Source of the DNA: an uncultured Candidatus Izemoplasmatales bacterium
GTDB lineage: Bacteria; Bacillota_I; Bacilli_A; Izemoplasmatales; Hujiaoplasmataceae
Direction of reading: 5' to 3'
Length of the DNA stretch: 64,000 nt
Assembly (NCBI GenBank): GCA_964501315.1
Contig: CAZCSO010000004.1
Coordinates: 24,179-88,178, forward strand
Positions within the stretch are counted from its first letter, which is position 1. Every line of letters begins with the position of its first letter. Under the pieces are notes generated by a model, which saw only the letters and a program-made list of their open reading frames with translations, was not told the origin of the DNA and ran no database searches. Of this stretch, positions 38,575 through 50,091 are shown piece after piece. The position numbers and the translations under genes are program-made.

Positions 38575-38688
38575 CAAAAAAAACGCTCGATTTAGAGCAG
38601 GCAAGATATCAACGATTTTAATTTCGTAGGTGTCCTGCCTCTCTTTTTTTATGATTTTAGTGTATAATTGATTAAAAAGGTGAACATT

Positions 38689-39213
38689 ATGAAAAAATTA
38701 TTAACTTTTGTATTAAGTCTGCTTTTAATATGCAGTTTATCAGGATGTGGTAAAAATGATGCCAATTCAATTGAGTCTAATAATCCTACTACTGAAGAAC
38801 CATCAATAACTACACCAATTGAAGATACTACACAAGAAACAAGTGAGAGTGATGAAATTATGAATAAAACATTAGTCCTTAAAATAGACAATACCGAAGT
38901 AGATGTATTTTGGGCTGATAACGCGTCAGTAACAGCTTTAAAGGAACTTGCTAAAGGTGGATTAACCATTAATATGAGTAAGTATGGTGGTTTCGAGCAA
39001 GTGGGTTCTTTAGGTACTTCAATTACATCAGCTGATACTAGAATTACAACAACTGCTGGTGACATTGTTTTATATTCATCAAATCAAATTGTTATATTTT
39101 ATGATTCAAATACATGGGCTTATACTAAACTTGGTCATATAAACTTATCTAAGAGTGAGCTAGTAGATCTACTTGCTGATGAAGATGTAACTATCACCTT
39201 ATCTTTAAAATAA
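38689..39213 (+). CDS. lipoprotein with a cyclophilin-like fold domain
   Basis: Signal peptide with lipobox LSGC. The C-terminal domain pattern (DNASVTALKEL...GDIVLYSSNQIVIFYDS...YTKLGHI) is typical of cyclophilin-like-2 proteins. The start at ATG 38689 follows AAAGGTGA. Confidence 0.7.
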   Translation: MKKLLTFVLSLLLICSLSGCGKNDANSIESNNPTTEEPSITTPIEDTTQETSESDEIMNKTLVLKIDNTEVDVFWADNASVTALKELAKGGLTINMSKYGGFEQVGSLGTSITSADTRITTTAGDIVLYSSNQIVIFYDSNTWAYTKLGHINLSKSELVDLLADEDVTITLSLK

Positions 39214-39240
39214 AAACACCACCAGATTACTCTAGTAGTG
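39205..39240 (-). terminator. rho-independent terminator of the recombinase operon
   Basis: On the minus strand, a 10-bp stem (39217-39226 / 39231-39240, two G-U pairs) is followed by TGTTTTTATTTT. Confidence 0.65.
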
Positions 39241-39274
39241 TTAGGAGGAAGTTCTGACTAAAAACAGAACTAAT

Positions 39275-40885
39275 CTATATCTCTATATGACCTATGCCAT
39301 TATAGTAGATATCAACTTGTTGAGTCTTTACACCATCTATTTTAGCCTTATGATGTACGACTATCTTTTGGATGAATTCTTGAACTATTTCATCCGTCAA
39401 TTCATTTATCTCAGTGTATTTCTTAACTAAGTTAATTAGGTAAGATGCATTGAGATATTTTTCATTTTCTTTATTTATAAAGTCTTGAAACTCTTTAATC
39501 CTAGTCTCAAGTTCCTTTTGCTCATTTTCATAGCTTGTAGATAATTTATTGAATCTATCATCAGTTAAATTACCATCTAGTTTATCTTCATATAGATTTT
39601 GAATAATTGAATCAAGCTTTTTATATCTAGCTGTAGCAGTATCAATTTCTTTAGTAGCACTTCGTAGGGCTCTGTTTAGTTCTGATTTAGAATAATCACT
39701 TACTTTAGCTACAAATTCATCTTCATTGTTCTTTACGAATGATGTTAATCTCTTAATATCAGCTAGAATAATAGCTTCTATATCAGCTTCTCTAATAGCG
39801 TGAGTATATTCGCATCTATGTTTTCTATAACTGCTACACACAAAATATGCAGGATTATGATATTTTTCTCTTGGACACACGTAATATAAAACCTCGCCAC
39901 AATCACTACAATAAAGTTTACCTGCAAGTTTAGGTACATAACCTAACTTGGTATTTTTACGCTTATGGGCTCTAATGTTTGCAACAACATCAAAGGTATC
40001 TTTATCAATAATGGCTTCATGCGTATTTTCAATTATCTTAAGTTCCTCTGGTTTCATTGGTTTGAATTTTCTTTTATTACGATTATATGGGTCTGGTTTA
40101 AAAATAACAGTATTGCCTATATATTCTTGCCTATTAAGTATTTCACTAACAATAGCAGGACTCCATTTGGTATTTGAATAATCTAAATCTTTATTCCATT
40201 GCCCATGAGTAATTTTATAATATCCAGGTGGCATAATATTTCGATTATTTAATTCATTAGCTATTTTACTAACGCCAAGACCATTTATGCACAATCTAAA
40301 TATTTCTTTAACAACAATACTAGCTTCATCATCAATAAGCCATTTATGTTTATCATTAGGGTCTTTCATGTAGCCATATGGTGGTAGAAAGGTTAGTGTT
40401 TCACCTCTATCAGCTTTTGATTTAAATACAGCCCTTATCTTTTTAGAAGTATCTTTAGCGTACCATTCGTTAATAATATTCAAGAATGGAGTGAAATCAT
40501 TATCGTTTGGTTTATCAGAATCAACACCATTATTTATAGCTATAAACCTTATACCATTTTCAGGGAATAATATTTCGGTAAAATATCCAACCTTTAAATA
40601 ATCACGACCTAGTCTAGACATATCTTTTACAATAATTGTTGCAACCTCATCACGATTTACGTGTTCCATAAGTCTAGTCCAATCAGGTCTATTAAAATTA
40701 GTACCAGAATAGCCATCATCAACAAAGGTAACTATGTTTTTAAATCCATTATCTTCAGCATATTTTTGTAATATATTTTTTTGATTAATAATAGAGTTTG
40801 AATCACCCTGTAAGTCATCATCACGAGAAAGACGGCAGTATAATGCTGTTAACTTTTGTGCTGATGTATTTAATTCTTGTAGCAT
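39275..40885 (-). CDS. large serine recombinase (TndX/TnpX-like, with zinc ribbon and coiled-coil C-terminal region)
   Basis: [22 protein letters not shown] is the catalytic Ser block; [10 protein letters not shown] follows. Recombinase domain, [12 protein letters not shown]...C zinc beta-ribbon, long coiled-coil tail. Confidence 0.92.
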
Positions 40886-41088
40886 TAGTCTGCCTCCTTT
40901 CCGTTAATGACTTTAATTTCATCAATTACACCATCTTCAAATAGCTTAATGGCATACTTGATTGCTTCATCCTCACTCCAACCAAGTGAAGTGATATAGT
41001 AGTTGACTAAATAATCAATTCCTTTTCTTGAGGTATTGGTATCGTCAACCAGTTCATATAATCTAGTTCTTAATTCATTTGTGCTCAT
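40885..41088 (-). CDS. hypothetical 67-aa protein translationally coupled to the recombinase
   Basis: Its stop overlaps the recombinase ATG (TAATG at 40885), with GGAGG inside its 3' end. No recognisable motif. Confidence 0.6.
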
Positions 41089-41156
41089 ATAAATAACCTC
41101 CTTTGGTGTGTATATACATCACTCTAAAAGGGATTATTATCAAGTAATACGAGCAC

Positions 41157-41324
41157 TTATTTTTTATTCTTTAAAGGCATTTGAATGATTGGTATTTCAA
41201 TAGATCTACGAATCATCTTTTCAACCTTTTTCTTTATGTAATCTTCATCTTTTTTATCGGCGACTTGAGTATTTATAACATAGACAGTGTCACCGATTTT
41301 AGTATTATAATTTAATCTATCCAT
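41157..41324 (-). CDS. possible small ORF (55 aa), hypothetical
   Basis: Below the ORF-track cutoff. ATG 41324 is preceded by GGTGA. Translates MDRLNYNTKIGDTVYVINTQVADKKDEDYIKKKVEKMIRRSIEIPIIQMPLKNKK. It fills an otherwise empty 295-nt gap in a tightly packed operon. Confidence 0.35.
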   Translation of the reverse strand: MDRLNYNTKIGDTVYVINTQVADKKDEDYIKKKVEKMIRRSIEIPIIQMPLKNKK

Positions 41325-41383
41325 GCTATTCACCAAAAGGATAGGAGCTAACCTAGAAGCCCTAAATTAGCCCCTAAATCGCC

Positions 41384-48480: not shown

Positions 48481-48506
48481 TATGAATATAATAATTATTA
48501 AAATGA

Positions 48507-49271
48507 TTAAAATGCATTTTTAACAATTACATTTAAAATTTCTAAAACATCATGATTATGTGCTGTCGAGCACATGCCAAAGCAAATTAATAAATCAAAA
48601 ACAACAGATTTCATATTTTCATCGAATGTAATGATTCCGTTAGGAGTTTCTGCAGATGTGTGATTGATAATTTTATTTGCATTATCAAAAGCATTGACTG
48701 GGATTATTAAGTATAGCATAGGTTGAACACCAGTTGCATATTGTTGCTTTTGAATCATAATTTCAATTAAAAGTTTAGAATCTCTTGGTTGAGTAATGAA
48801 AGTGGGAAGTTTGGTTGAAGAAGATAAAAACTTAATATTATTTAATGTGACAGAATCTTCTTTTTTTACTTCTATTGAATACTTATCTTGTAAAAAAGTT
48901 TTAATAGAAGCAATTTTGTTACAAACATCAAGTATTTCTTTTTTAGAAATAATATTATTTTTGCACATAAAGTAAGTAATCTCTGATAATTCATATGGAT
49001 GCTTACTTTTTTTATTTGCTCCAATAAAAACAAACTCGTCAGAATTCAATCTTGTTTCTTTTTCGTCTTTTCCAATTATCGTATCATATCCAATTTGCCA
49101 TTCAAGATAAGAATTGTTAGTTATAATTGTTGATTTTGGTGCAAATCCATTTCCAAATTCTTGAATATCATTTCTTGTTTTACATCTAAATTTACCTTGA
49201 CTAGTTAAAGGTAAGTTAACAACAACATTATTATTTTTTATTTCATAATTCATCTCTGGTGTTTTTGCCAT
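48507..49271 (-). CDS. hypothetical 254-aa protein (second gene of the ORFan pair; candidate nuclease/effector by context only)
   Basis: The ATG lies 1 nt after the upstream stop, with GGGAGGA inside the upstream gene. The only motif hint is a weak D115-x18-E134-V-K136. Confidence 0.6.
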   Translation of the reverse strand: MAKTPEMNYEIKNNNVVVNLPLTSQGKFRCKTRNDIQEFGNGFAPKSTIITNNSYLEWQIGYDTIIGKDEKETRLNSDEFVFIGANKKSKHPYELSEITYFMCKNNIISKKEILDVCNKIASIKTFLQDKYSIEVKKEDSVTLNNIKFLSSSTKLPTFITQPRDSKLLIEIMIQKQQYATGVQPMLYLIIPVNAFDNANKIINHTSAETPNGIITFDENMKSVVFDLLICFGMCSTAHNHDVLEILNVIVKNAF

Positions 49272-49272
49272 T

Positions 49273-49875
49273 TTATAATTCCTCCCATTTTAAAGTGTTA
49301 ATTAAAAAATCTTTTGTTCGTTCGTAATCATAGCTTTCCATTTTAGAAACTATTTCAATCATGCAATTATGCATTGGCATAAGGTCGAAATATCTTCCAC
49401 TATTTATAAAATAAGGACTATTTCGATATGCTTTTAGCTTATCTTCCGTTCCATAAATAATGCCAGTTTGTGCATTAATCATCATTGTGATTTTTAGCTT
49501 TTTAGTGTCTAAGTAAATGTTTTTATCATCATTTCTATTTGAAATACCATAATCTAATGGTGTTCCTCCGTGTGTTCCAAGAGTCATTTGTCCCTGAACT
49601 AATCCTTCAACAAATCTTCTTTGTTCATATGAACTAGAAGCTTTATAACCAAGCTTATTAACTTGTTCTTGAAATGGTTGTTTTTCTAGCCCAGAAGAAA
49701 AATTACTTATTCCGTTTAAAGTTTCAACATCGTGAATTAAAATCATTATGTCTTGACATTCCTCAAAAGAAAGACTTAATAATCCATTTGAAATTCTTGA
49801 GTCATGTAAATCAATTATTAATGAAATATATCTTGAAGAAAACTTTCCGCTCCTAGTAAATTTCCAAAAAAACAT
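49273..49875 (-). CDS. hypothetical 200-aa protein (first gene of the ORFan pair)
   Basis: ATG 49875 is preceded by AAAGGA. The ORF-track start at 49905 is a TTG extension. No recognisable motif. An extended -10 promoter TGATATAAT lies upstream on the minus strand, near 49939-49947. Confidence 0.6.
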   Translation of the reverse strand: MFFWKFTRSGKFSSRYISLIIDLHDSRISNGLLSLSFEECQDIMILIHDVETLNGISNFSSGLEKQPFQEQVNKLGYKASSSYEQRRFVEGLVQGQMTLGTHGGTPLDYGISNRNDDKNIYLDTKKLKITMMINAQTGIIYGTEDKLKAYRNSPYFINSGRYFDLMPMHNCMIEIVSKMESYDYERTKDFLINTLKWEEL

Positions 49876-49945
49876 ACATGTTATCCTTTCTATAAATTTT
49901 ATCAAAATGCTAAGTATGTATTGATATGACTCTATAATTATATCA

Positions 49946-50028
49946 TTTTTTTCTCAAAATTACTATTTTACGACTCTTTATTTAAGCTAAAAAAACATTT
50001 TTTCTCAAATTATTGAGGAAGTGACTCT
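49946..50028. repeat. two degenerate direct repeats of about 50 bp at the right edge of the island
   Basis: TTTTTTCTCAAAATTACT...GACTCT (49946-49977) and TTTTTTCTCAAATTATT...GACTCT (49998-50028). A third GACTCT is at 49928-49933. Confidence 0.6.
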
Positions 50029-50059
50029 AAAGAATCAATGAAAATAATCATATGGAGAC

Positions 50060-50091
50060 ATAAAAAACTGCCTAGATTTTACTCTAGACAG
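50060..50091 (-). terminator. rho-independent terminator of the TVP38-family gene
   Basis: On the minus strand, a 9-bp stem (50068-50076 / 50083-50091, one G-U pair) is followed by TTTTTTATGT. Confidence 0.7.

Follow-up and report, generated by a model that had tools for sequence, protein, structure and literature searches.

Satellite P4 (11.6 kb), whose helper is P2, encodes an integrase and a primase-helicase, has a variable defence hotspot and possesses a small zinc-binding regulator with homology to the delta/Ogr protein of the helper. Tn4451/Tn4453 and Tn5397 are mobilisable or conjugative transposons which carry Mob or conjugation genes and recombine at a GA crossover. Among the Staphylococcus aureus pathogenicity islands (SaPIs), SaPIbov5 has no gene for the small terminase subunit (terS) and carries the cohesive-end (cos) site of its helper. 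Its capsid homologue, Ccm, in which the delta domain is shortened, takes up the pentamers and so constrains the heads to a small T=4 size (PMC5052747, PMC8569155). Here we describe an integrated element in a 64,000-nucleotide stretch of DNA from an uncultured Candidatus Izemoplasmatales bacterium (assembly GCA_964501315.1, contig CAZCSO010000004.1, positions 24,179 to 88,178; hereafter the window, with positions counted from its first letter). Because it follows the same logic as SaPIbov5 (a cos-like block, a lone capsid homologue and no terS) on a different chassis, we favour reading it as a satellite. It is probably a cos-packaged element, akin to phage-inducible chromosomal islands (PICIs), that exploits Heliusvirales-like phages, the helper, the excision and the packaging being what we infer.

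The element has a GC-rich non-coding block of about 95 bp, conserved across its family, which is a candidate cos site (Table 1). A sequence-only profile (R1), built from six family members with no phages included, matched four phages, each with one copy: NatCom_34063 of Anaeroplasmataceae (7e-9), phi1605 of Erysipelothrix (8e-13), NatCom_11578 of Acutalibacteraceae (4e-10) and Javan105 of Streptococcus (3e-7). The block lies immediately 5' of terS (phrog_83, 2e-31 to 2e-36) in all four phages and directly after the gene of an HNH nuclease in three of them. Phages with HNH-dependent cos packaging keep the cos site between the HNH gene and terS. The position of the block in the phages is therefore the one expected of a cos site, from which a role in packaging is predicted. 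An exact-pattern scan of IMG/VR for the block gave three further family members and no phage, the phages being reached only by the profile.

The same block was found beside a lone capsid gene in unrelated backbones, including an island with a tyrosine integrase (L015, 1e-12) and an element of Bacillus badius (2e-11). Its orientation varies among the islands and in one case it is present as two inverted copies. A DNA site is favoured over a promoter because the block occurs in either orientation. It was also considered as a structured RNA and this was rejected, as RNAalifold gave -6.7 kcal/mol with 8 pairs and 1 compensatory pair and Rfam had no match; given this weak support for an RNA structure the block was treated as a DNA site. 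In the IMG/VR island L023, whose recombinase is 52% identical to that of the window, copies at 9486-9570 (+) and 10806-10896 (-) flank the lone capsid gene.

The gene list of an earlier note on this DNA, made from the letters alone (recombinase, HTH_17/excisionase, DUF3987 replicase, capsid, helix-turn-helix (HTH) regulators and cargo at the ends), was confirmed by profile searches. In Pfam, PHROGs, NCBIfam and PADLOC no match in the element was obtained for a relaxase, a coupling protein or a type IV secretion system, nor for portal, terS, terL (large terminase subunit), protease, tail or lysis genes. Since neither the transfer functions nor the packaging and structural genes were found in these four libraries, the statement that by content this is neither an integrative conjugative or mobilisable element (ICE/IME) nor a prophage stands. 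The related phages are 49-90 kb long and the element 11.5 kb.

The match of the lone capsid protein is confined to positions 135-383 of the TIGR01554 model, and it follows that the N-terminal delta scaffolding domain is missing; the homologue in phage NatCom_34063 has 399 aa with the delta domain, against 298 aa here. Profile and fold matches include the capsids of the Rhodobacter capsulatus gene transfer agent (RcGTA), of the capsid-forming PICI (cf-PICI) EcCI2 (9gyi) and of HK97, and the SaPIbov5 procapsid (7rwz), the structure model being of only moderate confidence (predicted local distance difference test, pLDDT, 65). The closest 21 capsid homologues (down to 43% identity) are all of 295-298 aa save two truncated entries, and every one whose context was examined sits in an island of this kind and not in a phage. 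The ratio of non-synonymous to synonymous substitution rates (dN/dS) was 0.05-0.36 over the capsid (0.15-0.36), recombinase (0.05-0.16), replicase and lipoprotein (0.21-0.32) genes, indicating purifying selection on all four.

Next to the capsid gene, ORF84 had relatives, by local BLASTP, among the proteins of L011, L107, L017, L015 and L020. It had no match in the four profile libraries and none in phages, and an indexed protein search returned only near-identical matches. Both its family and a small zinc-ribbon protein accompany the lone capsid gene in other islands, the one with the tyrosine integrase among them.

Several proteins are shared with phages. NatCom_34063 is a Heliusvirales phage of Anaeroplasmataceae with a full HK97-type set including terL, portal and protease, and its proteins are identical to those of the element at 59% for ORF67, 51% for residues 1-265 of the replicase, 37.5% for ORF90 and 35% for the capsid. 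Homologues of ORF90 are present in the same phage group, and 64 phage records contain one. In the phage regions L109 (5001-8484, NatCom_34063) and L110 (5001-9206, Javan105) the ORF90 homologue (phrog_2308) comes after the lysis genes, directly upstream of two or three serine recombinase genes.

The replicase had been described as a prim-pol/DUF3987 protein. The DUF3987 part is well founded, and the prim-pol label is unconfirmed: the N-terminus gave only a weak PriCT_1 match and no match in PDB or NCBIfam, and the 51% identity mentioned above is to a protein annotated as 'DNA primase'. The iterons reported after this gene are real and surround AT-rich DNA in a SaPI-like origin. This layout is kept in the relatives and the repeat changes with the type of replicase (TTGTCA/TGACAA in L011, CTGACAGTT in L015). 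Taken together, the cos-like block, the delta-less capsid under purifying selection, the proteins shared with phages and the origin support the satellite logic proposed in the earlier note.

The extent of the element was established with contig L001, which was found by an exact-protein look-up of the TVP38-family gene. Its flanks are 99.3-99.7% identical to those of the window; the TVP38-family gene abuts padR and the element is not present, which is the empty site that the earlier note had suggested looking for. This site is AAAACGCTCGAT-TT-TGAGCGTAATTTT, a two-way terminator hairpin between padR and the TVP38-family gene. In the alignment with L001 the host sequence is broken after T38591 and picks up again at T50119, with TT, exactly 2 bases, at both junctions and mismatches to either side. 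On this basis the element spans 38594-50118, 11,525 bp with one TT counted. The left attachment site is supported by this alignment, by the terminal inverted repeat and by the same arm in relatives. The terminal inverted repeats are of 23 bp and imperfect (18/23), and the TT crossover falls in the loop of the terminator hairpin. A 2-bp crossover with imperfect inverted repeats is the signature of insertion by a serine recombinase, and an enzyme of the TnpX type is encoded at the left end.

The AT-rich block with shifted codon use was borne out: 2-kb windows within the element have a GC content of 0.296 +/- 0.018 and those beyond it one of 0.389 +/- 0.017 (lowest 0.350), and the shares of AGA among arginine codons (69% against 24% in flanking genes) and of ATA among isoleucine codons (33% against 12%) are raised, the TTA contrast being smaller (49% against 39%). 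Of the two left boundaries proposed, the one at about 38.58-38.68 kb agrees with the end at 38594, which places the lipoprotein gene inside the element and rules out the inverted repeat GTTCTG-N8-CAGAAC at 39241-39274 as a boundary. The right end had been set at 50065, about 50 bp short of the 50118 given by the L001 alignment. The promoter assigned to padR corresponds to a promoter-like site at 38574-38546 on the minus strand (11/12 matches). Finally, a hairpin is present near 50068-50091, as claimed, and it does not belong to the TVP38-family gene: it is element DNA, part of the terminal 57 bp, whose conservation in relatives is 95-96%.

This inward-facing hairpin would stop transcription entering from the TVP38-family gene and therefore stands in for the terminator split by the insertion. 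The hybrid junctions at 38584-38599 (-) and 50109-50126 (+) still score as outward terminator-like hairpins with T-runs, and the element arms imitate the stem of the host terminator. With two outward hybrid junctions and the inward terminator, no flank is left unterminated.

Capsid homologues 44-93% identical sit in the same gene order in many metagenome contigs. The order begins with variable cargo, sometimes the 375-aa protein, the HTH_17 protein, the DUF3987 replicase and two small open reading frames (ORFs), and ends with the capsid, the TnpW-like protein, ORF67, the recombinase and the lipoprotein. The relatives lie beside different host genes, at at least six other sites, with a central AA/TT at every mapped junction, and targets with both junctions mapped were rebuilt as a terminator hairpin (A-run, stem, loop, stem, T-run). 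The empty site and the relatives at other sites show an integrated mobile element and not a fixed chromosomal synteny. In the five cases with both ends mapped the length is 11.0-13.5 kb including the decayed L104, and four of them measure 11.5-13.5 kb.

The core of L002 (1996-13689 in the Acholeplasmatales metagenome-assembled genome JBMNFC010000011.1) is 99.06% identical to window positions 38579-46878 at a different site, with the target AAACGCTCT-AA-TGAGCGCTTTT and with other cargo, namely two large ORFs of 608 and 419 aa. By sequence this points to very recent transposition and cargo swapping. L002 had come up as a GTDB match for the window locus and was rejected as such, being a second copy at another site. 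The modules are also mosaic: relative to window positions 39275-42280, L011 and L013 have recombinases 94-95% identical and capsids only 44-45% identical, with replicases at 57-70%. The capsid cassette falls into at least two deeply split allele groups, and the exchange of capsids between near-identical recombinases fits the tracking of different helpers. In decayed relatives at an mraZ/penicillin-binding protein locus of Erysipelotrichaceae contigs (L115-L117) the recombinase is in two pieces, an IS110 insertion truncates the replicase and the capsid cassette has gone; ORF67, the recombinase and a shortened lipoprotein remain.

An annotated relative occurs in a cultured Bacillus, on the 396-kb plasmid pPM400 of Bacillus badius (L108, record positions 79386-92576). 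Its order is AAA ATPase, type III restriction system, HTH protein, P4-family primase, cos-like block, capsid, TnpW and recombinase, the last being 51% identical to that of the window; it may serve as a tractable experimental system. A further island of about 8 kb (L015/L016, 3741-11861) lies between two SLH-domain genes and encodes a tyrosine integrase, a cI-like repressor and an NrS1-type primase with DUF5906, besides having CTGACAGTT iterons and an amidoligase-like gene. It carries an ORF84-family protein, a zinc-ribbon protein, a lone capsid of 310 aa and the cos-like block, and judged by its sequence this is the same cassette on a classic PICI-style backbone. We propose, tentatively and with somewhat less confidence than for the element itself, that it belongs to an undescribed but widespread superfamily in Bacillota, made up of cos-type satellites that depend on Heliusvirales-like temperate phages. 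Its members would share a portable hijack cassette (cos-like block, ORF84-family protein, zinc-ribbon protein and delta-less capsid) that passes between unrelated integrase and replicase backbones. In the window the partner of this cassette would be a TnpX-type recombinase with terminator hairpins as its targets, terminators being rebuilt at both junctions, and Acholeplasmatales and other mollicute-related bacteria would thereby gain their first reported satellites.

A plausible life cycle can be outlined. The element would excise in cells in which an HNH/terS cos-type helper phage is active, the likely helper being a Heliusvirales-like temperate phage of Acholeplasmatales-like Bacilli. It would then replicate from the iteron origin beside the DUF3987 replicase, and the helper terminase would cut and package it at the cos-like block. 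The delta-less capsid probably co-assembles or competes with the helper capsid to give small heads suited to about 11.5-13.5 kb, and portal, protease, terminase, tail and lysis functions would be supplied by the helper. While the element is integrated, the restriction or defence cargo and the lipoprotein would benefit the host.

Some observations weigh against this interpretation. The block could be a late promoter or leader instead of a cos site, although its variable orientation speaks against this, and the cohesive-end sequence is known for none of the phages that bear it. The closest phage capsid is only about 35-40% identical, and a delta-less capsid may be unable to assemble at all. ORF90 may control integration or excision rather than hijacking or late genes, because its phage homologues adjoin recombinase genes. 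In addition, neither the window nor its flanks of 18 kb showed a helper prophage, and no Stl-type master repressor is recognisable in the element. The junction expected of a circle or concatemer (...CTTGCCTGCTCT-AA-TGAGCACACAAC...), sought with two patterns, was not found in assembled IMG/VR or Joint Genome Institute (JGI) metagenome contigs.

The alternative that survives best, and which we nevertheless consider unlikely, is a self-replicating defence island with a TnpX-type recombinase that is not packaged on purpose. The capsid would be a poison subunit and the block would serve as a sink for terminase, so that the assembly of invading phages is aborted, and spread would be passive, by transformation or rare generalised transduction. 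It would suit a cargo that always consists of restriction or defence genes, a capsid without its assembly domain and the lack of any junction or virome sign of packaging in the contigs searched. Moreover, the Ccm of SaPIbov5 alone lowers the helper titre 10^3- to 10^4-fold (PMC5052747). However, interference and piracy coexist in known satellites, so the two explanations do not really exclude each other. Without packaging it is hard to account for a replicon and for a unit length kept within 11.5-13.5 kb, and a cos terminase would package a replicating circle that bears a cos copy if the length fits a head.

It is more doubtful still that the element is a decaying, cut-down prophage of the Heliusvirales type in which recombinase, capsid and primase genes were kept by chance. 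Such phages do have four proteins and the terS-proximal block in common with it and use serine recombinases preceded by an ORF90 homologue, and clearly decayed copies exist (L104, L115-L117). Nevertheless, the compact layout is repeated at many sites, its ends and ORFs intact and all four genes tested under purifying selection. The C-terminal domain of the replicase, the origin and the lipoprotein do not correspond to those of the phage, nor does the recombinase subtype (24-27% identity to the phage recombinases). The uniform length of the closest capsids and their island contexts likewise oppose a remnant. A mobilisable integrative element (an IME or Tn4451-type element) transferred by conjugation through an unrecognised relaxase or oriT is very improbable: the TnpX-type recombinase, the weak TnpW-like gene as in Tn4451 and about 660 aa of ORFs without assignment (375-aa protein, ORF210, ORF84) leave room for it, but signals of relaxase, coupling protein and secretion system were nil in the four libraries, the 375-aa protein is missing from several intact relatives, and the capsid gene and terS-proximal block would have no role.

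Table 1. Features of the integrated element, in window positions
Feature	Position	Strand	Remarks
attL	38580..38616		Host arm B to 38591; TT 38592-38593; arm P' 38594-38616 = AGAGCAGGCAAGATATCAACGAT
Lipoprotein	38689..39213	+	Lipobox LSGC; Cyclophil_like2, Pfam PF18050 2.7e-20
Hairpin terminator	39215..39242		Between convergent lipoprotein and recombinase genes
Large serine recombinase, TnpX/TndX type	39275..40885	-	Pfam Resolvase, Recombinase, Zn_ribbon_recom; C-terminal DUF4368
ORF67, three-helix protein	40885..41088	-	Stop overlaps recombinase start; conserved beside recombinase
TnpW-like small protein	41157..41324	-	Pfam TnpW, E 0.0012
HK97-fold major capsid protein, lone	41384..42280	-	Phage_capsid Pfam 4e-42; TIGR01554 8e-46; 298 aa
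ORF84	42301..42555	-	Small protein family adjoining the lone capsid gene in unrelated island backbones
ORF90, HTH and zinc ribbon	42533..42805	-	phrog_2308, 7e-15
GC-rich non-coding block, candidate cos site	42837..42933	-	About 95 bp, between origin and ORF90
Origin-like region	42941..43060		TTGTCC x3, about 70 bp AT-rich, then inverted GGACAA x2; directly 3' of replicase
Replicase	43065..45341	-	C-terminal DUF3987 helicase-like domain, Pfam 2.4e-84; PHROGs 1883 and 2373
Excisionase-type HTH_17 protein	45319..45519	-	TIGR01764, 32 bits (cut-off 28.8); phrog_66
Divergent control region	45520..45750		Direct and inverted repeats GTTGATTACA / GTCGATTACA; palindrome TCGATTACAT
375-aa protein, C-terminal zinc ribbon	45751..46878	+	Divergently transcribed
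Variable cargo	47048..49905		Four genes; other restriction/defence systems at the same position in relatives
HTH_26 controller-like protein	47048-47257	+	Cargo
Type II N6-adenine methyltransferase	47260-48480	+	Cargo
R.PabI-family restriction enzyme	48507-49271	-	Cargo
ORF210	49273-49905	-	Cargo; 1-bp gap after R.PabI gene; no match anywhere
Element-borne terminator	50066..50093	-	Inward-facing; inside conserved 57-bp terminal sequence of relatives
attR	50094..50130		Arm P 50094-50116 = ATCGTTCATATGTTGTGTGCTCA; TT 50117-50118; host arm B' from 50119

At the left end the lipoprotein gene is transcribed inward from the element end; it occupies the same end in all intact relatives and is not at the empty site. 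A role as a surface or superinfection-exclusion protein is a guess. The recombinase belongs to a 90%-identity cluster of 74 members. The predicted model of ORF67 (pLDDT 85) has three helices and gave no informative fold match in PDB or BFVD. The TnpW match, with 19 bits, is below the cut-off of 25, and the counterpart in Bacillus badius is annotated as TnpW family.

The HTH_17 gene is the first of a long leftward operon. Across the control region the gene of the 375-aa protein is accessory, being present in L005, L008, L101 and L002 and absent from L011, L013 and L102. No recognisable HTH was found in this protein and a regulator role is no more than guessed; its identity as DUF6076 was rejected, since the match was below threshold and confined to the zinc ribbon. 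In the cargo, a 20-bp direct repeat (46929-46948 and 47010-47029, AGTAAAAATGATATATTTAT / AGTAAAAATGGTATAATTAT) lies upstream of and overlaps the start region of the HTH_26 gene and may be the operator of the controller protein of the restriction system. R.PabI-family enzymes are of the DNA-glycosylase type and recognise GTAC. Avoidance of GTAC was tried as a test of this cargo and discarded, since GTAC is under-represented inside and outside the element alike and is uninformative on specificity.

A literature search on DUF6076, on TnpW and on the combination of capsid, DUF3987 and serine recombinase found no description of the element family, nor was any account found of its cassette, of the targeting of terminator hairpins or of any satellite in Acholeplasmatales-like bacteria. 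If the satellite reading is true, phage satellites extend into wall-less gut Bacilli and a parasite is dedicated to Heliusvirales, a phage lineage among the most widespread in the gut; pairing a lone capsid homologue with a stolen cos would then be a portable device adopted repeatedly, rather than something peculiar to staphylococci. The recombinase and its attachment sites form a compact pair that targets terminator hairpins and leaves genes terminated, and may serve as an integration tool. In addition, the variable end is a catalogue of satellite-borne restriction and defence systems, and the cos-like block offers a simple sequence handle for satellites and helpers in metagenomes.

The element resembles Tn4451/Tn4453 and Tn5397 in that its large serine recombinase has a DUF4368 tail, in the 2-bp crossover, in the use of several target sites and perhaps in a small TnpW-like gene, but it crosses over at TT, has no Mob gene and possesses a replicon and a capsid gene. 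As regards P4, the likeness between its zinc-binding regulator and ORF90 is an analogy only; P4 uses the external scaffold Sid and a tyrosine integrase, encodes no capsid homologue and has no sequence relationship to the element.

The satellite kind itself is not new, as serine-recombinase satellites (PMC9618062) and a lone-capsid satellite (SaPIbov5) are known. The remark in the earlier note that satellites are usually tied to tyrosine integrases must be corrected accordingly; the recombinase of this element is not of the tyrosine type, being a large serine recombinase by its Pfam domains, and the PICI-like elements (PLE) of Vibrio cholerae, whose helper is ICP1, and module 3 of the marine virion-encapsidated integrative mobile elements (VEIMEs) likewise combine such an enzyme with their own replication after helper infection (PMC9618062). 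However, PLE remodels capsids through the scaffold protein TcaP, without recourse to a capsid homologue, and a major capsid gene is absent from VEIMEs (PMC9618062). Gene homology between these elements and the present one is not established and their hosts are unrelated. The cf-PICIs share with it a satellite-encoded HK97 capsid, that of EcCI2 (9gyi) being among the best sequence and fold matches, but they encode a whole head set with portal, protease, adaptors and terS (PMC10085698), where the element has the capsid gene only.

The closest likeness is with the cos-type SaPIs. They differ in having a tyrosine integrase, a fixed attC, Stl/Str and Pri-Rep, whereas the element has a TnpX-type recombinase, many terminator-hairpin targets, a DUF3987 replicase, a capsid almost wholly without the delta domain, restriction cargo and a probable Acholeplasmatales-like Bacilli host, its function being predicted from sequence. 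The helpers of the SaPIs are HNH-dependent cos phages whose capsid has a delta domain (PMC5052747, PMC8569155). Like SaPIbov4 and SaPIbov5 of S. aureus (helpers phi12/phiSLT), which are SaPIs of about 12-14 kb, the element has no terS and carries a putative helper-type cos region, a single HK97-fold capsid homologue with a few small conserved ORFs beside it, and a replicase followed by the origin.

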